Positions 23,357-52,695 are shown, counted from the first letter of the stretch. The stretch: DNA of 64,000 nt from Ardenticatenaceae bacterium (GCA_020634565.1 JACKBN010000020.1:885-64884); one strand, 5' to 3'. A program made the numbers and translations. Notes: generated by a model from the letters alone, not told the origin.

Positions 23357-24763
23357 CTACTGTCCAGTGTTACAGTTTACCAGCGATCGCAGTAATATTT
23401 CAACCTGTTCGGGCAAAATAGTACGAGGGTCTATTAAGAAACGGCCGTCTTGAATACGTCCAATCACCGGGATTTTCTCTTGGCGCAGGCGGGCTGCCAG
23501 CTGATCTGGATCATCATGATTGATGGCCACAACGCGGCTAGGAAGACTGGTGCCAGGTAAGCTGCCGCCGCCCACGGTGGAACGGCCGTCTACCACTTCT
23601 GCCTGAATCCCCTGTTCTTGCAACCGGGCTGCCCAGGTATCCGCCTCTGGTCCAATTTTGTCCAGCGGACGCGAAATCATGCGCCAGACGAGAATCTCCT
23701 CCAGCGCATTTTCGGTGAGGTAATGGGTGAGTGTAGCGGAGAGCCCTGCCAGACAAAGCTTGTCGGCGCGCACGGCGCGGGCCAGCGGATGTTTTTTGAG
23801 CCGCGCCACCAAATCCTGCCGCCCGACCAAGATGCCCGCCTGCGGCCCGCCTAACAGCTTGTCGCCACTGAAAGCCACCACATCGGCCCCCGCCGCCAGG
23901 CCATCAAGCACGGTCGGTTCTGGTTCCAGACCGTACGGACTGCTGTCTAGCAGGGCGCCGCTGCCCTGATCATACAGCAGGGGTAGGTTGTGTTCGTGGG
24001 CCAATTCAGCCAGTTCGGCCAATGTGGGTTCACTTGTGAAGCCGATGACTTTGTAGTTGGAGTGGTGAGCTACGAGCAGAGCGGCCGTGTTTTCCGTAAT
24101 TGCATTTTGGTAATCGCGCAGATGGGTGCGGTTGGTGGTGCCCACTTCTACTAATTTAGCGCCGGATTGGGCCATCACGTCGGGAATGCGGAAGCCGCCA
24201 CCAATTTCGACCAGTTGCCCCCGGCTGATGATCACTTCTTTGCCCTGACAGAGCGTGGTGAGCATGAGCAAAACGGCCGCTGCGTTATTGTTCACCACCA
24301 GCGCCGCCTCAGCGTCGGTGATGCGAGTAAGTAGCTGTTCCGCATGCACAGTGCGGGAACCGCGCTGGCCGCTGGGCAGATCATATTCCAAGGTGCTGTA
24401 CCCTTTGGCCGCATCTTCGATGGCCTGACGCGCGGCGGCGCTAAGCGGCGCACGCCCCAAATTGGTATGCACAATCACACCCGTGCCGTTGATGACGGGT
24501 TGCAGGGTGGGGGCAAGATAACTTTCCAGCCAGACACGGGCATCATCTACCAGCATGGCGTTCATCGGCGCGTAGCTGGCTTTGCCGCCGAGAATAGAGC
24601 TGCGAGCGGCCTCCAAACTTTGGCGCAAGCTTTCTACGGTGAGGGAACGGCCGTACGCCAGCATCATATCCACCGCCATCGCCGTATTCAACAAACGATC
24701 GACACTGGGGAGTTCACGCAGCAAGGTTTGTGTTTTTTCTTTGCTTGGGGATTGCTCTTTCAT
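23357..24763 (-). CDS. selA: L-seryl-tRNA(Sec) selenium transferase SelA
   Basis: 468 aa. Motifs are LRELPSVDRLL, NGTGVIVHTNLGRAPL and FSGDKLLGGPQAGI (the PLP lysine context). Confidence 0.85.
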   Translation of the reverse strand: MKEQSPSKEKTQTLLRELPSVDRLLNTAMAVDMMLAYGRSLTVESLRQSLEAARSSILGGKASYAPMNAMLVDDARVWLESYLAPTLQPVINGTGVIVHTNLGRAPLSAAARQAIEDAAKGYSTLEYDLPSGQRGSRTVHAEQLLTRITDAEAALVVNNNAAAVLLMLTTLCQGKEVIISRGQLVEIGGGFRIPDVMAQSGAKLVEVGTTNRTHLRDYQNAITENTAALLVAHHSNYKVIGFTSEPTLAELAELAHEHNLPLLYDQGSGALLDSSPYGLEPEPTVLDGLAAGADVVAFSGDKLLGGPQAGILVGRQDLVARLKKHPLARAVRADKLCLAGLSATLTHYLTENALEEILVWRMISRPLDKIGPEADTWAARLQEQGIQAEVVDGRSTVGGGSLPGTSLPSRVVAINHDDPDQLAARLRQEKIPVIGRIQDGRFLIDPRTILPEQVEILLRSLVNCNTGQ

Positions 24764-25892: not shown

Positions 25893-25963
25893 GGACACAG
25901 ATTTACACAGATGGACACGGATAAAAATAAAAAATCAGTGCAAATTTGTGTTTATCAGTGTCC
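25893..25963. repeat. Family D nonamer (CACAGATTT-type) element in the divergent spacer upstream of dnaE
   Basis: GGACACAGATTTACACAGATGGACACGGAT lies opposite CAAATTTGTGTTTATCAGTGTCC as imperfect inverted blocks. Confidence 0.65.
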
Positions 25964-26021
25964 CATCTTAAGCGAAAAAGCCCTTGCCAATAACCGCTCT
26001 CGAACATATGATCCAAAATGC

Positions 26022-29000
26022 ATGAACGAAACCTTCACCCATCTACGCGTCCATTCCCATTATACCCTGTTGGGCGCAACTGCCACTGTGGAGCAGCTGG
26101 TTGCCCGTGCCGCTAACCAGGCGCTGCCTGCGCTGGCCCTCACCGACGGCGCGGCGCTGTACGGCGCAGTTGCCTTCAACCGCGCCTGCCTCGCCGCTGG
26201 TATTCAGCCAGTGTTGGGTATGACCCTGCGCGTCACGCTGCCGGAAGCGATGAACTTGCCGGGGCCGGGCTGGGGCGAACTGGTGCTGCTGGCCAAAGAC
26301 TCGGTGGGCTATCGCTCATTGTGCGGCCTTTCTTCGCTGATGCAGGGCAGCGGACAGCGAGAGCAGATTTTGCGGCAGGGGCTGGATTGGGATGAATTAC
26401 GGCCGTTTACCCCCCATCTCATCGCCATCGACAGCGGCAAAACCGGCTGGCTGGCCCGACTGGTTGCTGCCGGACAACCTAAACTGGCCGCGCGGTATGC
26501 TTCTCGCCTGGCCGGGCTGTTCGAGTCAGATGGTTACCTGGGCGTCACGATTCAACAGCCCGCCGACGTGGCCCTGGCGCGGGAAGCCAGCAGCGTGGCG
26601 GCTCGATTTGGTTTGCAAGCGGCGGCGCTCCAGCCCATTTTTTGCCTGGAACCAGACGAAGCGCCCCGACTGCGCCTGCTGGCGGCGATTGACCAGAACT
26701 GCCATCTCACGGAGGTGCCTGCCGAATCACTGCCCGGTGGTGGTGGGGCCGATGCGGAGCTGCATTGGCTACCTGCCGAAACGGTAGCGGAACGATTTGC
26801 CGATCTGCCGGAAGCAGTGGCCACGGTAGGCAAAATTGTGGCCAAATGCGAACCGGCGCTGCCGGACGGCCGTCCCATCTGGCCCAAGCTGGATTTACCA
26901 GCGGAGCAGACGGTGGAGGATGCGCTGGCGGCAGCGGCGCAGGCTGGATTGCGCGAGAAATATGGCCCTTCCCCCGATTCTTCAATTTTTGCTCGGCTGG
27001 AAAAAGAAATCGCCTCCATCAATCGGTACGGTTTTGCCCCGCTCTTTTTGCTGGTGGCCGACATCACCCGCTTTGCCCGCGAAACGGCCGTACCCGTGAA
27101 CACGCGCGGCAGCGTGGCCAACTCGCTGGTGGCCTACTGCCTGGGCATCACCCAGGTGGACCCCATTGCCAACGAGCTGCTGTTTGAGCGGTTTCTTAAC
27201 CCGGCGCGGGCTAATTTGCCCGATATCGACCTTGATTTTTGCAGCCGCCGCCGGGACGAGGTGCTGAATTACGTGCGCGAAAAGTATGGCGAAGACCGCG
27301 TCGCCCTCGTGGCCACGATTAGCACCATGCAGCCCACATCGGCCGTGCGGGAGACGGCCAAAGCCCACGGTTTGCCCGAAGCGGAGATCAAGGCGCTGAC
27401 GGCGCTGCTGCCCCGTGGCTGGGCATCCCGCTCCGCGCCGCCGCAGCGAAAAACCGCTGGACGATGTGCGGGCCGAGGTGGAAGACGTGGCGCAGCATAA
27501 AGTTCTCGCCGATGCTTTTTCCCTCATCGGGCAGCCGCATCATCTGAGCATTCATCCCGGCGGCATCGTCATTTCGCCGGGGCCGATGACCGACTACGTG
27601 CCGGTGCAACTTGCCCCCAAAGGGTTTCTCATCACCCAATACGACCATCGGGACGTGGAGAAAATTGGCCTGCCCAAGATTGATTTGCTGGGCATCCGCG
27701 CCCTCACGGTGCTGGCGGACACGGCCGAAGCGATTCGCACCACGCTGGACCCTGCGTTTGATTTGCTAAACATACCGCCAGACGATGAGGAAACGGCCGT
27801 TCACCTGCAAACCGGCCAAACCATCGGTGTTTTTCAATGCGAAAGCTCCGGGGCGCGGCGCACGCTGCGGCAATTGAATGCTGCCAATCTGCGCGATTTG
27901 GCGGTGGCCAACGCTTTCTTCAAGCCAGGCCCAGCCACGGGCGGCATGGCCCAGGCCTTTGTGCGGCGCTATCGCGGCGAGGAGCAGGTCGCTTTTTTGC
28001 ATCCGGCGCTGGAACCCATTTTGGGCAGCACCCAGGGCGTCATGCTGTTTCAGGAGCAAGTTTTGCGTGTAGCCACTGAGATTGCGCATCTTAGTTGGGC
28101 TGAAGCGGATCATTTGCGGCGCGGTATGAGCAAATTCAAGGCGGATGAGATGGCGGCGATGCGACAGCGTTTTGTGCTGGGCTGCCAGGAGAAAAGTGAC
28201 TTTAGCAAAGAACAGGCAACCACGCTTTGGGATCAGGTGATGCCCTTTGCGGGCTATGGTTTTAATCAGGGGCACGCCACGGCTTATGCGGATGTTAGTT
28301 ATCGCTCGGCTTATTTGAAGGCGCATTATCCGGCGCAGTTTTTGTGCGCTCGGCTGCGCGATTATGGCGGCTTTCACCATCCGGCCATTTATATTGCTGA
28401 AGCGCAGCGGTTGGGCATTGGGGTGCGTCCGCCGCATGTGAATTTTAGCGGGCGCAAGTTTACGCTGACAACCGGCGAGCCATCCCCGATTTTGTGGATG
28501 GGGTTGGGGCAGGTGCGGGATTTGCGGCGGTCGGCGGTGCGGGCGATTGTGCAGGCGCGGGAGGAACGGCCGTTCACGAACCTCCACGATCTGCTTAGCC
28601 GGGTCGATCTGCAAAAGAAAGAAATCAGCCACCTGATCCAGTGTGGCGGATTGGATGGCCTGGGCGAAAGCCGCGCCGCGCTGCTGGCGGAGGCGGCGGA
28701 TGTGGCTCGGGCGGGCAGCGCGCACCAGTTGGGTTTTGATTTGGGCTTGAAAACCAAAATTGAGGCGGAAAGTTTAGCGGAGCGTTTGGCCTGGGAAACG
28801 GCCGTTCTTGGTTGGCCTGTTTCGGCTAGTCCGGTGGCAGTGGTGCAAGATCAGGCTGCGGATGATGTGCCGCTGCGCTATGTGCCTCGTTTGCGTAACC
28901 AAAAAACGACGGTGGCTGGGGTTCGCTTGCCGGGCTGGACAGGTGGACGCGGCTTCTATTTTGGCGATGGTGATAGTTTTGAAATTGTGCAGCTGCAAAA

Positions 29001-29121
29001 AACGGCCGTTGCCAAAAGCAAGATTAAAGCGTGGCTGCCAGCGCGCCTGACAGGGTATTGGCGGGAAGATGCCTGGGGCGGTGGGTGGTTCGAAGCGGTA
29101 GATGTTGCTATCCTCTTATAA
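26022..29121 (+). CDS. dnaE: DNA polymerase III alpha subunit family (DnaE) with one reading-frame break near 27400-27425
   Basis: ORFs 25911..27500 and 27415..29121 together read as one DnaE. The PHP domain is HLRVHSHYTLLGA...LALTD. The palm/fingers region reads DIDLDFCSRRRDEVLNYVREKYG, HPGGIVISPGPM, GLPKIDLLGIRALT and FQCESSGARR. The OB fold lies near the end (TVAGVRLPGWTGGRGFYFGDGDSFEIVQL). The likely true start is MNETFTHLRVH at 26022. The join LLPRGW/HPAPRRRSEKPLDD needs a 1-nt shift at the GGG run 27421-27423. Confidence 0.8.
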
Positions 29122-32134: not shown

Positions 32135-34813
32135 TTACAGAATCTCCACAAACCCTTCATCCCCATGTACGCGAATGTGCTGCCCAGTTTGTATTTGCCG
32201 CGTAGCATCCGCTACGCCGACGACGGCGGGGATGCCATATTCGCGGGCCACTACCGAGCCGTGGGTCATCAGGCCACCCACTTCCATTACTAGGGCGGCA
32301 GCGTTAATAAACAGCGGTGTCCAGCCCGGATCGGTGAATGGGGCAATGAGGATTTCGCCCTTGGCCAGCACATCTTTGGTGGGGTCCATTACGACTTTGG
32401 CAATGCCCTCGATGGTGCCACTGGAAGCAGCGCTGCCCACCAGCGCACCTTCGGGCAGGCCTTCCCGGCTGATTTTGGCCTGCACAATTTCGCCGTCGCT
32501 GGTGAGCAGGCGGGGCGGGGTGAGCTTGTGGCAGCGGGCAAATTCTGCCTGGCGCTGCGAGATAAGCGGCCGTATTTCCAGTTCCGGGTTGGCGGCAAAC
32601 TGAATCAACTCGGCCAGGTCGAGGTGGTAAATGTCGTCGGGGTGGGTGATACGGCCGTTTTCAACCAATCGCCCCGCCTCTTCCTGCAAAATTGGCTTGA
32701 CCATGCCCAACAGCTTGATGATGCAAAACTTGGGATGCTCTCGCCCCGGTGTGTAGCCGCGCACTGTTTTCACCAGGCGGCGCACCAGCGGACGGCGCAC
32801 AAAACCAAACAATCCTTGCCCGGCTGCGGCGATGAGCCGCTGGCCAGCCGCTTCGCCTGCGGCAGACATTTGGGCGTGGTGGGCGCGATGGCTGCCCGGT
32901 TCTTTGTGCTGCAAGTTGCCAATCACAAATTGCAACAACGAGGTGGGGTCTTCGCGCCAGCGGAGGCGCGAAATGTCAATTTCTGACGGGCCACGCATGC
33001 CATAGCGAGCCAGAAAATCGGCCCAGCCCGCCAGAAATGGGGCGCTGCCGGGCACGCTGGCGGCGCTGGCCAATGCCTGTGCTGGCGGATTGTTTTGAAA
33101 ATGAGCGACCAGTTCGGGTGACTGTCGCACCAAATCGGCCAAATCGCCAACGGCGAGGTCCATTTCGGTGGTGACATTGCCAGAGAGTCCGCGGGCAACG
33201 GCCGTTAAATCATCCGGGTTGGCGCGCTGGCTCATGAGCTTAGCCAGCAGCCGCTGCGAAGCGATGCCGCTGGCCACCAGGGCGGCAAAATCGGGGAGTA
33301 GGAAGTTAAAGACGCCACCAATTTCTTGCTCGATTTGTTGCAGGCGGGCGGCTCCCGCTGGTTGGGCCAAAATGCGCTGCTGGCTGGCTGCTACCAGTGT
33401 GTCCATCCGGTCGGTTAGCTCCTGGAGCGTGGCTTGTGGCTCGCGTCGCAGCACAAATTTGAAGACCGTTTTGATGATGGGGCCGAGGTAGGAAAATACG
33501 TCCCGCAGGTGCGTTTTGGGATGAAGTTGGGCCAGGCGCTGCCGAAATTCAGGCCGCTCGATTGCCGCCCGAATGCCTGCGGCAATTTGCTCATCGGCCA
33601 GGGTGAGGAAGATGGGTACCAGCTTGCGGCCCAGGCGCAGGTTGAGTAGGGGCGTTGTGTCAATGTACATGCGGCCGCCGGCTGCGGCGACGCTTTGGCT
33701 GCGGCTAGTCGGGCCAGCGATCTTTTGCGTGGGGAACATCAGCCGCCAAAAGTCCAGCCCCAGTCGCTTGACGGGGTCCAGCATCACCTGGGCGTGGCTC
33801 AGGCTGACGTAGAGGTGGAGTGCGTCATCCTGCGGCTGCGGTTCGGGCAGGGGGAAAAGCGTGGTGATGGGGCGGGTTTGCAGCAGGTAGATTTCCCCGT
33901 CGGCGATGGCCCATTCGATGTCTTGTGGCTTGTGGTAATGGGCTTCGATGCGCTTGCCCAGCTTTGCCAGGGCGATGGCTTGCGCTTGGCTGAGGACCTG
34001 GGCGTGGCGCTGGTCATCGCTGAGGGTTTCCTGGATGGTGCCGCCTTGGGGTAACGGCCGTATCGCCAACTGCTTGTCCCCAATTTTTGTTTCGATGAGC
34101 TGATGGGTGCGGCTGTCTACTCGGTACAAATCGGCCGTGACCAGCCCGGCGACAAGTGCTTCACCCAAGCCGTAGCTGGCGTCGATAGAGCAGATGTGGC
34201 GATGCTGGCTGACTGGATCGGCGGTGAACAGGATGCCGGAGATGTCTGGCAACACCATTTGCTGCACCACGACGGAGAGGGCAACCTCTTCATGAGCAAA
34301 GCCGTTGCGCTGGCGGTACAAAATCGCCCGATCGGTGAAAAGCGATGCCCAGCAGCGGCGCACGGCATCCAAAATATCGGCTTCGCCCTGCACGTTGAGG
34401 TAGGTGTCTTGCTGCCCGGCAAAGGAAGCGTCGGGCAAATCTTCGGCGGTGGCGCTGGAACGCACGGCGTAGGCGGCGTTAGGGTCGAGGTGATGGAGAG
34501 TTTGAGTAACGGCCGTACCAATCGCATCGGGTATGGCTGTTTCATGCAGCGCCTGGCGAATTTGCTCGCCAACTTTGCGCGTAGTCACTAAATCTTCCGC
34601 TGGGATGGCGTCCAGGGCGGCGTAAAAATCGGACATTTGCGGGCAGGCGGCCACAAAATCGTGGAAGGCACGGGTAGTAACGCAGAAGCCGGGCGGCACG
34701 GGGAAGCTGGCCCGGGACATTTCGCCCAGGTTGGCTCCCTTGCCGCCGACCAGCGGCAGATCAGCGGCGGAAATTTGTTGAAAGGGAAGTGTGTAGGGAA
34801 TATGGTTTGTCAT
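32135..34813 (-). CDS. PEP-utilising enzyme family protein (PpsA / rifampicin-phosphotransferase-like three-domain architecture)
   Basis: 892 aa. The N-terminal PPDK_N ATP-grasp region reads LVGGKGANLGEM and AVRSSATAEDLPDASFAGQQDTYLN. A central domain follows. The C-terminal swivel His domain reads FTDPGWTPLFINAAALVMEVGGLMTHGSVVAREYGIPAV. Confidence 0.75.
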   Translation of the reverse strand: MTNHIPYTLPFQQISAADLPLVGGKGANLGEMSRASFPVPPGFCVTTRAFHDFVAACPQMSDFYAALDAIPAEDLVTTRKVGEQIRQALHETAIPDAIGTAVTQTLHHLDPNAAYAVRSSATAEDLPDASFAGQQDTYLNVQGEADILDAVRRCWASLFTDRAILYRQRNGFAHEEVALSVVVQQMVLPDISGILFTADPVSQHRHICSIDASYGLGEALVAGLVTADLYRVDSRTHQLIETKIGDKQLAIRPLPQGGTIQETLSDDQRHAQVLSQAQAIALAKLGKRIEAHYHKPQDIEWAIADGEIYLLQTRPITTLFPLPEPQPQDDALHLYVSLSHAQVMLDPVKRLGLDFWRLMFPTQKIAGPTSRSQSVAAAGGRMYIDTTPLLNLRLGRKLVPIFLTLADEQIAAGIRAAIERPEFRQRLAQLHPKTHLRDVFSYLGPIIKTVFKFVLRREPQATLQELTDRMDTLVAASQQRILAQPAGAARLQQIEQEIGGVFNFLLPDFAALVASGIASQRLLAKLMSQRANPDDLTAVARGLSGNVTTEMDLAVGDLADLVRQSPELVAHFQNNPPAQALASAASVPGSAPFLAGWADFLARYGMRGPSEIDISRLRWREDPTSLLQFVIGNLQHKEPGSHRAHHAQMSAAGEAAGQRLIAAAGQGLFGFVRRPLVRRLVKTVRGYTPGREHPKFCIIKLLGMVKPILQEEAGRLVENGRITHPDDIYHLDLAELIQFAANPELEIRPLISQRQAEFARCHKLTPPRLLTSDGEIVQAKISREGLPEGALVGSAASSGTIEGIAKVVMDPTKDVLAKGEILIAPFTDPGWTPLFINAAALVMEVGGLMTHGSVVAREYGIPAVVGVADATRQIQTGQHIRVHGDEGFVEIL

Positions 34814-34822
34814 GATTTATCC

Positions 34823-35893
34823 TCAATGGTTTTGCCCGAAAATGGTGGTTTGGGGGTGAAATTCGCTCCAGCCCAGCCAAAATTGGCGTTGGATGGGGAG
34901 GGGTTGGGTGGTGTCGAGACGGCCGTCTTCCGTTTGGCGGTAGGCGTGCAGGCGGTCATTTGGGGCATCATAAAACACCGTTACCAGCACGCCACCGAGT
35001 GTGTCAGGAATTAGCTTTGCATTTTTTAGGTGGGTTAAAGGGTAAGCGCGCGCTTCGCCGTTGAGCAGTAGCCCCCCCACTTCTTCATGGGAGGGCAGGC
35101 GGGTGTCGTTGCGGTTGAGACCGGGAGTTTTGTAGCTGCCGGTGAATTTCTCTAGCAAAAACTCAAGCTGTTGAAAAGAAAGTAATCCTTGGGGCGGATT
35201 GGTTGGTTCGATGGAAACGGCCGTTTGTGGATGTCGCCTTACCCAATCGTGCCAGGTGGTTTGCTCGCCGCCGATGAGTTCAAGCTGCGCGCCTTTGAGC
35301 GGCCCATGCAGCGCTTCACCCGTGGCTTGCTGCCAAATGGTGCCCGTTTCACGATCCTGCATGATGAGATTTCGTCGCCAGACGCCGAGCACCTCAAAGG
35401 TGAGTCGCTGGCCATTGACCGTGGCGGCGTACACGAGGCCGCTGCGGCAAGCCGCTCAGTAAGCTGCCAGAACGGGTATTTGCCCAATGACATCGTTGAT
35501 GAGGTGGCGCGGCACTAAATTGGCGTAGTCCCAGGCGTGGGGCTGCTCCCCGACAAGTGTGCCAAGGATGACGGCCGTATTTGTCAGATTCACTCTTTTG
35601 GCAGGGGCGTGGGGTGGATCGATTAGGTCCACAAAAATGCGGCGCGGTTCTAAAAATTGGGATTGCAGGGCAAAGATGGTGCCGGGCAGCAGCATCAATC
35701 CACGACGCAGTGAAGGTGCCTTGCGCCAATTCTGCCAAATGAGCAGCCAACCCAGCAGCCCCAACGTGCGCCGCAGCGGATTGACGTTGCCCAGGCGAGC
35801 CAGGGTGCCAATGCCTAGCTGGGGCAGAAATGCGGGAAACATAGGGGCAAGGCCCCCGATGGCGGCTAAAAGCACGCCCAAAAATGATTTCAT
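34823..35893 (-). CDS. DUF3179 domain protein with in-frame TGA at 35456-35458 (candidate selenocysteine, UxxC)
   Basis: ORFs 35456..35893 and 34823..35434 share one frame and are separated only by TGA plus 7 sense codons. The joined sequence reads HLINDVIGQIPVLAAY-U-AACRSGLVYAATVNGQRLTFEV...DRETGTIWQQ...TTWHDWVRRHPQTAV, which is DUF3179-like. A second degenerate DUF3179-like half follows. Confidence 0.6.
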
Positions 35894-36002: not shown

Positions 36003-36770
36003 TTATGGTTGTTTTAGACCGTCTAAAAATAGTTCGGTGATGAAAACGGCCGTTTCTTGCGGCTCTGGGTTGGGCAGCTTGTAGTAGATAGGCATGATTA
36101 AACCGAACGACAAAATCATCCCCGTCAAGGCGGTGGCCGCTTGCTGCGGATCGATGGGACGGAGCTGCCCGGCATCCATTTGGCTTTGTAAAAAGTTGGC
36201 CACCCGGCTGAGACTGCGCTGCTGAAACGGCCGTAAATTCATCAACTCATCGCGCCATTCGCGGGCATTGCTAAAGCTGTGCTGCACCATATCCTGATGC
36301 TCCAGAATGAACCGGATCATCGTTTCGACCAACTGCGCCAAATCATGTCGCAAATCACCCGTCAATTCATGTTCTGTTACCGGCAAATGCGGGTGAAATG
36401 CCTGCAAGAAGGCGCGCAGCAGCCCGGTTTTGTCACCAAAATGGCGATACACGGTGGCCACACCGACGTTGGCTTCCTCTGCGATTTGCTCCATCGTGGG
36501 GATCATCAGGCCTTGCTGGGCAAACAGGGTGCGCGCAGCCTGCAAAATGCGGTTCGGCGCATCTTGCTGTTCCAGATCGTCCAGGCCGTGCTCGGTGGCC
36601 AGCCGCTTGAGGATCGCTTTTTTGCCGCCAAGCTGGCGGTAAAGGGTGGCGCGGGAAACACCAGCTTTTGCGGCGAGCTGGTCCATGGTGAAGGAAACGG
36701 CCGTTTCCTCCGCCAATTCTCGCGCGGCGTTCAGTACCTGCTTTTCATCTAATTCGCTTTGAGATGACAT
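36003..36770 (-). CDS. TetR/AcrR family transcriptional regulator
   Basis: 255 aa with two TetR-type HTH-like segments (FTMDQLAAKAGVSRATLYRQ and PTMEQIAEEANVGVATVYRHF). Confidence 0.8.
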   Translation of the reverse strand: MSSQSELDEKQVLNAARELAEETAVSFTMDQLAAKAGVSRATLYRQLGGKKAILKRLATEHGLDDLEQQDAPNRILQAARTLFAQQGLMIPTMEQIAEEANVGVATVYRHFGDKTGLLRAFLQAFHPHLPVTEHELTGDLRHDLAQLVETMIRFILEHQDMVQHSFSNAREWRDELMNLRPFQQRSLSRVANFLQSQMDAGQLRPIDPQQAATALTGMILSFGLIMPIYYKLPNPEPQETAVFITELFLDGLKQP

Positions 36771-36860
36771 GATAGATATTTTATCTATCGTTTCGTATCA
36801 TGTCAATAGCTGCGTAAAAACGGGGTTGCCCAGGGTGAGTGCCGCTCTTACAATCAGGAG

Positions 36861-37595
36861 ATGCAACTTTATATGATCAGACACGCACAATCGGAAAATA
36901 ATGAATTGTGGGCGCGAACGGGCAGCAGCAACGGCCGTTCGCCGGACCCCCTTTTAACGGAAATTGGTGAGCAACAAGCGGCACATTTAGCCCAGCAAAT
37001 CGCCCAAAATTGGGAGAATGCCGACCCAGACAACGATCTGCACAATCGCCGTGGTTACCAGTTCACACACCTGTACAGCAGCCTCATGGTGCGGGCCATC
37101 ACCACCGGCATGGCGATTGCCGAACAGGTGGGTATGCCCTTAGTCGCCTGGGAAACGATTCACGAATTTGGCGGTATTTTTGAACGGGATCACGAAACGG
37201 AGGAGCGCACAGGTCTGCCAGGGCCCAATCGGCCGTTTTTTGCCAAACATTATCCAAACGTCGTCTTGCCAGATTATTTGGGCGAGGCGGGCTGGTGGGA
37301 ACGGCCGTATGAAACGCGCGAGCAGGGGATGCAGCGTGCCCAACTTTTTTTGGATGAGCTGCAAGAACGGCATCAGCCCGAAGACCGCGTGGCGATTGTG
37401 ACCCATGGCGGCTTTTTTGTGGCGGTGCTGCGTACCTTGTTTGGCTATACAACCATGGATAATTCTGAAGCTCAGAATCGCATCTGGCTGCATGCCAACA
37501 ATACCTCCATCTCCCGGCTGGATTTTAATGAAGAGCGGGTGGAACTTGTTTATCTAAACCGGGTCGATCATTTACCGATTGACCTCATTACCTGA
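36861..37595 (+). CDS. Histidine phosphatase (phosphoglycerate mutase-like) family protein
   Basis: 244 aa. Motifs are LYMIRHAQSENN (RH motif) and IVTHGGFF (second catalytic His). Confidence 0.75.
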   Translation: MQLYMIRHAQSENNELWARTGSSNGRSPDPLLTEIGEQQAAHLAQQIAQNWENADPDNDLHNRRGYQFTHLYSSLMVRAITTGMAIAEQVGMPLVAWETIHEFGGIFERDHETEERTGLPGPNRPFFAKHYPNVVLPDYLGEAGWWERPYETREQGMQRAQLFLDELQERHQPEDRVAIVTHGGFFVAVLRTLFGYTTMDNSEAQNRIWLHANNTSISRLDFNEERVELVYLNRVDHLPIDLIT

Positions 37596-38117: not shown

Positions 38118-38888
38118 ATGTTTAATTTAGCCAACTCCCATCGCTCTATTCGCGCCTACACCAACCAGGATGTAGACGACAGTTTATTGAATGAACTGCT
38201 CATGACCGGTTTGCGCAGCTCAAGCTCTGGCAATATGCAAACCTGGTCGGTCATTGTCACCAGAGACGAAGCCGCCAAACAGAAGCTTTACGAAGCCCAT
38301 TATGAACAGCCAATGGTTTTGCAGGCCCCCATCGTACTGACCTTTTGCTCGGATGTGTTCCGCATGCGGGAATGGATTCGGGTGAATCAGTCCAAGCAAA
38401 GCTTTGATGACTTTTTGGGTTTTCTCACCGGCGCTGTCGATGCTGTGATTGCCGCGCAAACTATCTACCTGGCGGCCGAATCGAAGGGGCTGGGCATCTG
38501 CTACATGGGCACCACTTGGTGGTCGGCCGATGACATCATCGAGATTTTGGGGCTGCCGCAGGGCGTTTTTCCGGTGACCAGCATTGTGCTGGGGCATCCC
38601 GCCGAAGACCCCGCACTGCGCGATCGCCTGCCGCTGGAACTGTTAGTGCATCGGGAGCGGTATCACATTTTGTCCGACGCGGAAATCAAAGCGCAGCACG
38701 CGGCGCGGGAGAAAAATGCGTGGGCGCGCTACAACGCCAATGAGGAACTGCGTGACACACTGGCGGCAGCGGGCATTACCAAAGTGACCGATTTTTACAC
38801 GTCGGAATACAAATATTCCAAAGAGCTGCACCAGCGCGTCAGCGAAATGTTGGTAGCAACGTTACAAAAGCAAGGTTTGTGGCTGTAG
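38118..38888 (+). CDS. NfsA-like NADPH-dependent nitroreductase family protein
   Basis: 256 aa. SHRSIRAYTNQDV, RSSSSGNMQTWSVIV and GLGICYMG match the NfsA/Frp pattern. Confidence 0.75.
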   Translation: MFNLANSHRSIRAYTNQDVDDSLLNELLMTGLRSSSSGNMQTWSVIVTRDEAAKQKLYEAHYEQPMVLQAPIVLTFCSDVFRMREWIRVNQSKQSFDDFLGFLTGAVDAVIAAQTIYLAAESKGLGICYMGTTWWSADDIIEILGLPQGVFPVTSIVLGHPAEDPALRDRLPLELLVHRERYHILSDAEIKAQHAAREKNAWARYNANEELRDTLAAAGITKVTDFYTSEYKYSKELHQRVSEMLVATLQKQGLWL

Positions 38889-38898
38889 TCTAAGCCAC

Positions 38899-40629
38899 TT
38901 ACATTGAGATGGAGCCTTTGCGGAAATCGGTCTTGCCAATCATGACGTTGATCAGGACGGGACGGCCGTTTTCTGCCACCGCTTTCCCCTGAGCCAAAAT
39001 CTCATTCAATTGCACTGGATCATCGACACAAAAACCATCGCCGCCGTATCCTTGGGCGACGACATGGTAGTTGGTTTGGGCCAGATCTGTGCCCAGCGGC
39101 GTGCCTAAAATTTCCACCTGGTCTCTGGCAATTTGCGCCCACGAGGCGTCGTTGCCAATCAGGGCAATAATGGCCACGCCGTGCCGGGCAAACGTGTCGA
39201 ATTCCGCCAACGAATACCCTGCGGAGCCATCCCCATAGAGCAGCCACACTTCCGCATCGGGACGGCACAGCTTGGCGGCCAGGGCAAAGCCACCGCCCGC
39301 ACCCAGCGTGCCAAAGGCGCCGGGGTCCAGCCAGCTCAGCGGCCCGCGTGGCCGCACGATGTAGCTGGCCGTGGCCACAAAATCGCCGCCATCGCCAATG
39401 AGAACGCTGTCTTCGGCAACGGCCGTTTCCAACTGCTGGCACAACCAAACCGGATTCACCAGCCCGGTCTCTTCTTCGGCTGTCTGGCTGATTTCAGCAT
39501 CCCGCGCGGCATCGCGTTCGATGAGCGTGTTGTGCCACGTTTGCCAGCTGTTGTCTGGCTGCCAGTTGGCCGCCAGCGTACGCAAAAATGCGCCGGGATC
39601 GGCGAGAATGCCGATGTCGGGCCGGCGGTTTTTGTTCAAATCTTCTTCACTTCGGTTGATTGAGATGTAGGTAGCCCGTTTGGGAATGGAACGGCCGTAT
39701 CCCAGTCGGAAATCGGCGGGCACACCGGCCAAAATAATCACATCCGCCTCGCGCAGCGCCTTGCTGCGCTTGTGCCGCAAATGCAGCGCGTCCCGCCCCA
39801 ATAATCCCCGGGCCATGCCAGAAAGGTAGGTGGGGATGTTTAGCTTTTGCACCGCTGCTTGCAAAGCGTCCCCCTGTGCGGCGTCAATCAATGCCTGGCT
39901 GCCGATGATGAGTAACGGCCGTTTGGCTCCGGCCAGTGCTTTGGCCACCTGCTGCACCTCGCCGCTGGCGGGTAGTGAGGGGATGACCAGCGGCGGCTCG
40001 CTGGCGCGCTGCTCCCAGGCGCGGCCAAACGTGCGGCGCAGATGGGTCTCAAAGTAAAGCGACATCGCTTTGCCTGCCAGCCCTTTGCCGCTGGAACCCA
40101 TCGTCCAGCTGCGCACCACATCCTCTGGGTAAAGCAAATCAATCGGAATTTCCAGGAAAACGGGGCCGGGCACGCCCTGCTGGCACGTTTGGAACGCTTC
40201 TTCGAGCAAAGGCACGATGTCGCGCACTTTTTTGGCGGCGCGTGCCCACTTGACGATAGGCCGCACCAGCGCCAGTTGGTCGATGTCTTGCAGCGCGCCA
40301 CGTCCTTTGAGCAGCGTTGCCGCCGAGCCGCCAATCAGCACCAGCGGCGATTGGGCCATTTGCGCATTTTTGAGGGCGGTGATCGTGTTGGTGACGCCTG
40401 GCCCGGCGGTGACGGCGGCCACACCGGGCACACCGGTTAATCGGGCCGTGGCGTCGGCGGCAAAAACGGCCGTTGCCTCATGCCGCACATCAATGACCCG
40501 GATGCCTTGTGCTTCGGCCCCCACCAAAATCGGCGAAATGTGCCCACCGCAGAGCGTATACAAAAATTGCACACCTTGCTTTTGCAGCACCTCGCCAACC
40601 AACACGCCACCATTCATTTCTACTGCCAT
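38899..40629 (-). CDS. Thiamine-pyrophosphate-dependent enzyme (acetolactate synthase / 2-hydroxyacyl-CoA lyase family)
   Basis: 576 aa. The TPP_N segment reads [16 protein letters not shown] and [14 protein letters not shown]. The TPP-binding segment reads [15 protein letters not shown]...[11 protein letters not shown]...NN-like. Confidence 0.8.
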
Positions 40630-52058: not shown

Positions 52059-52657
52059 GGGTTTGTTTTTTTGCGGCGACGAGACGGCCGTTTTCCCAAA
52101 TCCGCCCGGTGATTGTACGCCAGTAACCCCATCTGCACCGCCCACACGCCCAGTAAAACTGGGTCATCGAACCAGACGAGCAGCGCGATGAGCATGCCCA
52201 CCATTGTCAGCATCACCGCCCAGCCGGACGGCGTGATGAGCAGCGTAAACAGAATCAGCAGCGAGAGTGAAATGGGCGGCATTGTCCAAATGGTGATGCC
52301 GATCCAGACGCCAAATGCGGAGGCAATCGCTTTGCCCCCGCGCCAGTTGAGAAAAGGTGAAAAAGTGTGTCCTAAGGGTGGGGCCAACGAAATTGGAATG
52401 AGCGGCCAGCCTTCCACGCCAAAAATGTGTACTGCCAATCCCAGCGGCAGCGCCCCCTTCGCGATATCCAACATGAGCGCCAAAATGAAAGGCGGCATCC
52501 CGCCCGCGCGTAGCACGTTGGTCGCCCCAGGATTTTTGTCGCCGAATTGGCGAATATCTTTGCCCAGCATTAATTTGCCCACCCAAACAGAAAACGGCAG
52601 CGCGCCGAGCGTAAAACCGAAGAGGGTCCAGAGGAGGGTGGGGAGGAGTTGGTTCAT
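52055..52657 (-). CDS. plsY: PlsY-family acyl-phosphate acyltransferase
   Basis: 200 aa. GALPFSVWVGKLMLGKDIRQFGDKNPGATNVLRAGG and RGGKAIASAFG match PlsY (PF02660). Confidence 0.75.
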   Translation of the reverse strand: MNQLLPTLLWTLFGFTLGALPFSVWVGKLMLGKDIRQFGDKNPGATNVLRAGGMPPFILALMLDIAKGALPLGLAVHIFGVEGWPLIPISLAPPLGHTFSPFLNWRGGKAIASAFGVWIGITIWTMPPISLSLLILFTLLITPSGWAVMLTMVGMLIALLVWFDDPVLLGVWAVQMGLLAYNHRADLGKRPSRRRKKTNP

Positions 52658-52695
52658 AAGAAAGTGTGCAAGTGAGCAAGTGAACTGATTACCGA

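Follow-up and report, generated by a model that had tools for sequence, protein, structure and literature searches.

A 64,000-nucleotide (nt) stretch of an Ardenticatenaceae bacterium genome (GCA_020634565.1 JACKBN010000020.1:885-64884), called here the window, carries on its minus strand, at 34823..35893, a gene for a protein with a DUF3179 domain (PF11376) whose frame is crossed by a TGA codon. We consider it very likely that 35893..34823 is a single membrane-anchored DUF3179 gene of a Promineifilaceae-like Chloroflexota host, in which the UGA at codon 146 (35456..35458, minus strand) is a selenocysteine (Sec) codon occupying the first position of a U-A-A-C motif. The selenocysteine reading of this codon is strongly supported by the comparison with homologues and by a conserved hairpin that follows it. 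The DUF3179 selenoprotein family is not new, since the family, its Sec position and the downstream stem-loop are already known.

The same minus-strand frame holds two open reading frames (ORFs), 35456..35893 (145 amino acids, aa) and 34823..35434 (203 aa), between which lie the single TGA (35458..35456) and seven sense codons (A-A-C-R-S-G-L), with a stop-to-stop distance of 633 nt, exactly as an earlier preliminary description of the locus had reported. Read through, the gene consists of 356 codons and a TGA stop; its product has hydrophobic helices at the N terminus and the DUF3179 domain after them, and across the junction it reads ...IPVLAAY-*-AACRSGLVYAATVNGQRLTFEVLG... With a cysteine (Cys) placed at the TGA, the 356-residue joined product matches PF11376 with 140 bits (E = 1.4e-40; cutoff 27 bits), in an alignment that crosses the TGA and places residues 95-349 on profile positions 12-292 of 292. 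By itself, the 203-aa downstream half scores 101.6 bits and enters the profile at position 74, and the 145-aa upstream half has no Pfam match, in agreement with the proposal that neither half is a complete domain. The rise in score from 101.6 to 140 bits across the TGA supports the presence of one gene. Moreover, the joined product is colinear with the full-length Cys homologues (about 350 aa). It has the C-terminal motif W-x-x-W-x-E-F-H-P, of which W339, W342 and E344 are invariant, and H346 and P347 nearly so, in an alignment of 42 sequences.

At the position of the TGA, the full-length homologues (about 350 aa, 30-43% identity) all read [W/Y/F]-C-x-x-C-[R/N/H]-S, and the window reads Y-U-A-A-C-R-S. 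Both C146 and C149 are invariant in an alignment of 13 sequences as well as in that of 42, so the TGA does coincide with the leading Cys of a CxxC, as the preliminary description had suggested. The form of the motif given there, CPLC, is a minority variant only, most members having CAAC or CALC. The codon of Cys149 (35447..35449, minus strand), the predicted resolving or partner Cys of the UxxC, is kept in all Sec forms and falls in DNA that gene callers treat as intergenic. The search with the PF11376 profile and the inspection of the Cys column, both proposed in the preliminary description, therefore agree with its reading, the match spanning the TGA and the homologues carrying Cys.

In the database, the nearest proteins (69-99% identity) all come from ORFs of about 203 aa that correspond to no more than the C-terminal 56% of the query; half-length entries of this kind account for about 53 of the best 120 database matches. 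On nine contigs of these half-length relatives, the upstream ORF ends 21 nt before the annotated start in every case, and an in-frame TGA followed by xxC is present at the identical column. A species-level scan, taking one genome per species, returned 80 DUF3179 loci, with TGA in 32 and TGT or TGC in 48. Once earlier fetched loci were added and duplicates removed, the distinct sequences comprised 37 TGA forms and 47 Cys forms (25 TGT, 22 TGC), and the TGA stands at the same column in 37/37 distinct split relatives. The Sec forms span four groups, namely Chloroflexota, Planctomycetota (a metagenome-assembled genome, MAG), Myxococcales (also a MAG) and Acidobacteriota. Those of Promineifilaceae (Chloroflexota) are the closest to the window (74-80% identity); Sec forms are also carried by Anaerolineae and by loci assigned in their records to Thermoflexus hugenholtzii and Litorilinea aerophila, and a separate Acidobacteriota Sec clade reads W-U-S-Y-C-N-T-A-L-V-F-R-A. 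This pairing of Sec and Cys at one column is the classic signature of a selenoprotein and supports Sec decoding. In addition, when the upstream 145 codons are compared with those of eight close relatives (66-82% amino-acid identity), differences are most frequent at third codon positions, then at first and least at second positions, which indicates that the part preceding the TGA is translated and under selection.

The Sec forms share a candidate selenocysteine insertion sequence (SECIS) immediately downstream. Counting the U of the UGA as position 1, its conserved core occupies nt 17-35 (35424..35442, minus strand), as delimited by folding, pair counts, synonymous constraint and a covariance model. 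The Chloroflexota-type consensus is UGA NNN NNN UGY CGC AGC GGC [C/A/G]UC GUG UA[U/C] GCC GCC, in which G17-C21 pairs with G31-C35 (stem GCGGC/GCCGC), N22 pairs with N30 when these are A-U or G-C, a pair U23-A29 is possible, and the apical loop C24-G25-U26-G27-U28 (CGUGU) starts 20 nt after the UGA. In a set of 24 sequences, each of the five core pairs is a standard one in 96-100% of cases, and the sole changes, from C to U opposite G, are compatible with wobble pairing. Of these sequences, 12 have A-U at pair 22-30, 3 have G-C, and in 9, the window with its C-C among them, this pair is not formed. Since the switch between A-U and G-C passes through the synonymous third base of a Tyr codon, selection on the protein alone is insufficient to explain it. 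Synonymous-codon entropy gives the strongest signal: it is 0 at codons +6, +7 and +8 (GGC, AUC, GUG), 0.25-0.9 bit at codons +4, +5 and +9 to +11, and 1-2.4 bits at most flanking codons.

The same constraint is visible in the protein and in other lineages. The Acidobacteriota Sec clade has a different stem (GGCCCU/AGGGCC) that again presents CGUGU, equally far from the UGA. The peptide encoded by the hairpin is kept among Sec forms (G-[LIV]-V-Y-A-A, or A-L-V-F-R-A in Acidobacteriota), whereas Cys forms are free to vary at these positions (VFSRV, LYNPV, VYDRD and others), a pattern to be expected where an RNA structure limits the choice of amino acids; the comparison offers a clean case of a coding-region SECIS with such an effect. 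The mean minimum free energy (MFE) of nt 10-48 is -12.8 kcal/mol in Sec forms versus -8.3 kcal/mol in Cys forms (37 versus 47 sequences; Mann-Whitney p = 6e-8), and that of the window is -14.4 kcal/mol. The covariance-model check that had been recommended was carried out with a model trained on 23 relatives, the window excluded, and was positive: it finds a single site in the 64 kb, 35414..35458, with 61 bits (E = 9e-14), the runner-up having 11 bits. Among 60 more loci, made up of Cys forms and Acidobacteriota Sec forms, none exceeds 17 bits (E > 0.05), and the Cys forms that fail the model still encode nearly the same peptide.

The published limits for bacterial SECIS elements (bSECIS) allow 3-9 nt for the loop, 4-16 base pairs (bp) for the upper stem and 16-37 nt between UGA and loop, set the MFE at no more than -7.5 kcal/mol, and ask for a G, as a rule with G or U after it, at one of the two leading loop positions (PMC13188914). 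In size, spacing and MFE the present element lies within them, with a stem of 5 bp (7 in the Ile/Val variants), a loop of 9 nt (5 in these variants) and a loop start 18-20 nt after the UGA, so the spacing is compatible with a SECIS, as had been proposed. In the 15 relatives with A22-U30 or G22-C30 the loop is C-G-U-G-U, with a G at its second position. The longer hairpin drawn in the preliminary description (35419..35447, minus strand), with a 3-bp lower stem, a 2x2 internal loop, a 5-bp upper stem and GU in the loop, is recovered by RNAfold, but its lower stem is clade-specific: conservation is confined to the loop and the 5-7 bp of the upper part, and pairs of the lower stem fail to form in 4 to 16 of the 24 sequences. 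We accordingly discarded the 3-bp lower stem as a general feature, as it is limited to the window and the nearest Promineifilaceae-like clade. A shuffle control on the whole structure is modest, 17/500 shuffles reaching the observed score, with most stem pairs never varying. As a side observation, some Acidobacteriota Cys forms nearest to the Sec clade of that phylum (L071-L074) still fold a strong hairpin at the SECIS position, at about nt 17-37, for example GGCGCGG-UGUU-UCGCGCC in L072 (-16.9 kcal/mol). These could be fossil SECIS elements left after a recent change from Sec to Cys, or a pre-adaptation.

The loop also accounts for the way the gene is annotated. The GUG at 35432..35434 (minus strand) lies in the SECIS loop, is invariant in 25/25 clade-A sequences, and corresponds to the called start of the spurious 203-aa ORF; in every relative the annotated ORF (about 195-235 aa) begins at this GUG, and the equivalent site is consistently taken as the start across L001-L032. 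The gene is split by gene callers because this conserved GUG resembles a start codon, and a systematic family of truncated "DUF3179" entries (about 195-240 aa) in public databases arises from this choice. In the genomes of Promineifilaceae, Anaerolineae and Ardenticatenaceae, and in many metagenome assemblies, the gene is consequently deposited as two ORFs, an unnamed 145-aa protein and a DUF3179 fragment of about 200 aa. Reading the UGA as Sec would restore the full-length protein and mark these Chloroflexota as users of selenocysteine.

The window also carries part of the expected machinery. The selA gene noted earlier (L-seryl-tRNA(Sec) selenium transferase; 23357..24763, minus strand) is confirmed by a match to TIGR00474 (E = 1.7e-175, 584 bits against a cutoff of 267.9), and selA marks the selenocysteine-decoding trait. 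TGA ends 8/36 long non-overlapping ORFs of the window, the DUF3179 gene included; it is thus a normal stop, and the codon is not reassigned. A scan of the window found six other long frames interrupted by TGA, none of which is an apparent second selenoprotein. The one compared with Pfam, at 52164..52679, was rejected as a second Sec gene because it matches no Pfam family and overlaps a real plsY in another frame, and most of the remaining ones look, from the ORF coordinates, like alternative frames of longer ORFs. Separately, the dnaE gene (DNA polymerase III alpha; 25911..29121, plus strand) is split into 25911..27500 and 27415..29121, which lie in different frames and both have strong matches to DnaE domains. 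The frameshift, an assembly indel or a genuine disruption, lies within 27415-27500, where a run of five A occurs at about 27450, and it is relevant to how far the sequence of the window can be trusted.

The split dnaE is also what lends some weight to the explanation that the TGA is a nonsense mutation or a miscalled base in an ordinary Cys-type DUF3179 gene, given that the assembly may hold errors or pseudogenes. Against this stand the recurrence of the TGA at one column in 37 distinct sequences, which derive from independent assemblies and represent four phyla, the purifying selection acting on both halves, and the hairpin after the codon that is specific to TGA forms, and together these data effectively refute it. 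That the locus encodes two polypeptides, a 145-aa membrane protein ending at the UGA and a 203-aa soluble protein starting from the GTG at 35434, is very improbable, even if the public annotations of relatives list exactly these ORFs and even if termination at the UGA under scarce selenium would give a short N-terminal product. The conserved A-A-C-R-S-G-L, with the invariant second Cys of the CxxC, comes from the 21 nt that separate the ORFs; neither half is a complete Pfam domain, the Cys-form homologues are all single chains of about 350 aa, and no Shine-Dalgarno-like sequence was seen by eye before the GTG. Just as improbable is a selenium-independent read-through, in which a near-cognate tRNA (Cys or Trp) or a reassigned code would decode the UGA. 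Sec incorporation is indeed a prediction, and selB, selC and selD are not seen in the window; on the other side, TGA is a normal stop for other ORFs, selA is present, the conserved hairpin fits the bSECIS constraints, and the column is Cys in all other homologues.

Several points weigh against decoding as selenocysteine, or against parts of that reading. Neither selB, selD nor a tRNA-Sec was seen within the 64-kb window, where ARAGORN found zero tRNA genes. In the window, positions 22-30 form a C-C mismatch, so that a G stands at loop position 2 only if the isolated pair U23-A29 forms; the loop predicted by RNAfold has 9 nt, CUCGUGUAC, with G at position 4. The window hairpin is no more stable than shuffled sequence of the same composition (z = -0.12), and the case for it consequently rests on comparative evidence. 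Rfam gave no match over the whole window at gathering thresholds, and only noise at relaxed thresholds over 35350-35500. As to the protein, a Foldseek search of the PDB with an AlphaFold2 model of P0015, the nearest full-length Cys homologue (predicted local distance difference test score 93.8, predicted template modelling score 0.89), returned no significant whole-protein match (best E = 0.06), the proposal of a redox or metal role for the U-x-x-C comes solely from analogy, and no experimental Sec incorporation in any DUF3179 protein was found in the literature searchable here. Taking these points into account, we retain selenocysteine at codon 146 as very likely.

The P0015 model has three helices at its N terminus (residues 2-77). 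The beta-rich domain after them contains two copies of a strand-strand-helix-strand-strand-strand pattern. In tblastn searches, the second half of the DUF3179 domain aligns weakly to the first half (second segments of L071-L086), and it has H-Q-P-x-S-D-T-T-T-A-F where the first half has the W-U/C-x-x-C segment. The repeated secondary structure and the weak half-to-half alignment suggest that the DUF3179 domain is an internal tandem duplication in which the CxxC/UxxC was kept in the first repeat only. A sequence search of the PDB found nothing. The recurring Foldseek matches are local, covering about 90 residues of Rieske ferredoxins and NirD-type small subunits (probability 0.6-0.8). A Rieske/NirD-like domain (3gce, 4aiv and 3c0d at E = 0.15-0.66 over about 90 residues) was therefore kept as a weak lead only and not adopted, the Rieske ligands CxH...CxxH not being matched by DUF3179, which has a CxxC preceded by P-[RH]-H. 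Haem binding through CxxCH was also discarded: few members have U/C-x-x-C-H, most having R, N or Q at the last position. Other invariant or nearly invariant polar residues in the 42-sequence alignment are H130, N175, D180, Q188, T191, E193, E344 and H346, a set whose conservation is more suggestive of a catalytic or metal site than of a dithiol alone. By analogy with other UxxC selenoproteins, U146-x-x-C149 is most likely a redox-active selenylsulfide centre or a metal-binding centre.

These elements can be arranged in a putative mechanism. While the ribosome is at the UGA, the mRNA 17-35 nt past this codon would fold into a short GC-rich hairpin presenting the loop C-G-U-G-U 20 nt after the UGA, which would act as the bacterial SECIS. 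SelB carrying Sec-tRNA(Sec) would recognise this element, and selenocysteine would be inserted at codon 146 in place of termination. The predicted product would have N-terminal hydrophobic helices serving as a membrane anchor, followed by the beta-rich domain of two repeats, in which Sec146 and Cys149 would form a U-x-x-C centre replacing the C-x-x-C of most homologues. As in other UxxC selenoproteins, this centre may cycle via a selenylsulfide in a redox reaction or may bind a metal. The gene would probably be transcribed together with a TetR regulator and an Rph-like phosphotransferase.

The TetR-family regulator gene (36003..36770, minus strand; NCBIfam TetR-type matches) lies directly upstream of the DUF3179 gene and is itself preceded by a promoter-like sequence, TTGACA-17-TAAAAT (36806..36778, minus strand; 11/12 positions match). 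Nine nt past the DUF3179 stop starts a gene for an Rph-like or phosphoenolpyruvate (PEP)-synthase-like phosphotransferase (32135..34813, minus strand), which matches NF004878 with 1033.7 bits (cutoff 945) and the Rph equivalog NF041857 with 803 bits, below its cutoff of 999. On these profile scores it is assigned to the group of PEP-utilising phosphotransferases related to rifampicin phosphotransferase. No minus-strand terminator-like site occurs between the TetR gene, the DUF3179 gene and the gene at 34813..32135, and the three are probably co-transcribed. The order TetR, DUF3179, Rph-like is kept in Promineifilaceae-type loci, and synteny with TetR is kept in L001-L005. An Rph-like gene adjoins a Sec-form DUF3179 gene in 10 loci (L010-L016, L018, L024, L028), and in three more distant Sec loci (L018, L024 and L028, the last from Litorilinea) it lies directly upstream, whereas it is downstream in Promineifilaceae. 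Adjacency kept despite an inverted order suggests a functional link more than inherited synteny alone would.

It is conceivable, if unlikely, that in Chloroflexota the Sec-containing DUF3179 protein works with the Rph-like PEP-dependent phosphotransferase as its redox- or metal-dependent partner, within a module under TetR control that acts on small molecules such as xenobiotics or antibiotics. If true, the coupling with the Rph-like enzyme would provide the first functional context for DUF3179 and for its selenium dependence. Genes for TetR regulators, ABC or MFS transporters and proteins resembling aminoglycoside-modifying enzymes are found near DUF3179 at other loci, and these neighbourhoods are at most suggestive of small-molecule handling. 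Clustering of the neighbours over 84 loci revealed no universally conserved partner, and a recurrent 480-aa "neighbour" was set aside as a shadow ORF, being antisense to the DUF3179 gene and without a Pfam match. At two individual loci with more distant Sec forms, the surrounding genes resemble drug-resistance genes. The Sec form of L007 (a Joint Genome Institute contig, JGI 3300009506) lies near a GNAT acetyltransferase gene, an aminoglycoside nucleotidyltransferase-like gene and APH, and that of L006 near a TetR regulator and a DrrA-like ABC transporter. In the window, the flanking genes at 36861..37595 (plus strand), 38118..38888 (plus strand) and 38899..40629 (minus strand) encode a histidine phosphatase, a nitroreductase and a thiamine pyrophosphate (TPP)-dependent enzyme. 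The first and the last of these also occur near DUF3179 in L001 and L002, which suggests that the conserved neighbourhood extends past the putative operon.

The preliminary description presented this gene as a candidate new selenoprotein, a claim that the literature does not support. Tables of prokaryotic selenoproteins list a DUF3179 domain-containing protein, pfam11376, with the motif UxxC/T (Zhang et al. 2022, PMC9312934), as does a 2026 review in Applied and Environmental Microbiology (PMC13188914), and both credit the Olavius symbiont metagenome study of Zhang and Gladyshev 2007 (PMC1976440). For the DUF3179 family, each of the two tables names a single representative, the two accessions being MBW1804167.1 and MDJ0986319.1, and neither describes a SECIS (PMC9312934, PMC13188914). 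At NCBI, one member, P0067, is named "DUF3179 domain-containing (seleno)protein"; no NCBIfam model matches it or the joined window protein, so the name comes from another rule. As the family and its Sec position had been catalogued before, general knowledge of selenoproteins is unchanged; what is specific here is a lineage whose records still show two ORFs and the addition of a comparative description of the SECIS.

Compared through their published description, the catalogued DUF3179 selenoproteins and the window protein belong to the same Pfam family, have U first in UxxC, show the Sec/Cys pair and have a stem-loop after the UGA; the window copy differs in coming from a Promineifilaceae-like Chloroflexota, a lineage whose public records show the gene as two ORFs. 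With the consensus bSECIS (bSECISearch; E. coli fdhF-type) the element shares its location in the coding region, its stem, loop, spacing and MFE within range, and a loop G followed by U. It differs by the C-C mismatch below the loop in the window, and its recognition by SelB is a prediction; it also lacks sequence similarity to the fdhF element and matches no Rfam model. Other bacterial UxxC/CxxU redox selenoproteins, which have a thioredoxin fold or bind metals, for example the UxxC cation-transporting ATPase and CobW-like proteins listed in those tables, resemble the DUF3179 protein in that Sec replaces one Cys of a CxxC, and a redox or metal-binding role is expected for them (PMC1976440). 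Finally, unlike the UxxC proteins with a thioredoxin fold, the DUF3179 protein has a predicted fold made of hydrophobic N-terminal helices and two beta-rich repeats.

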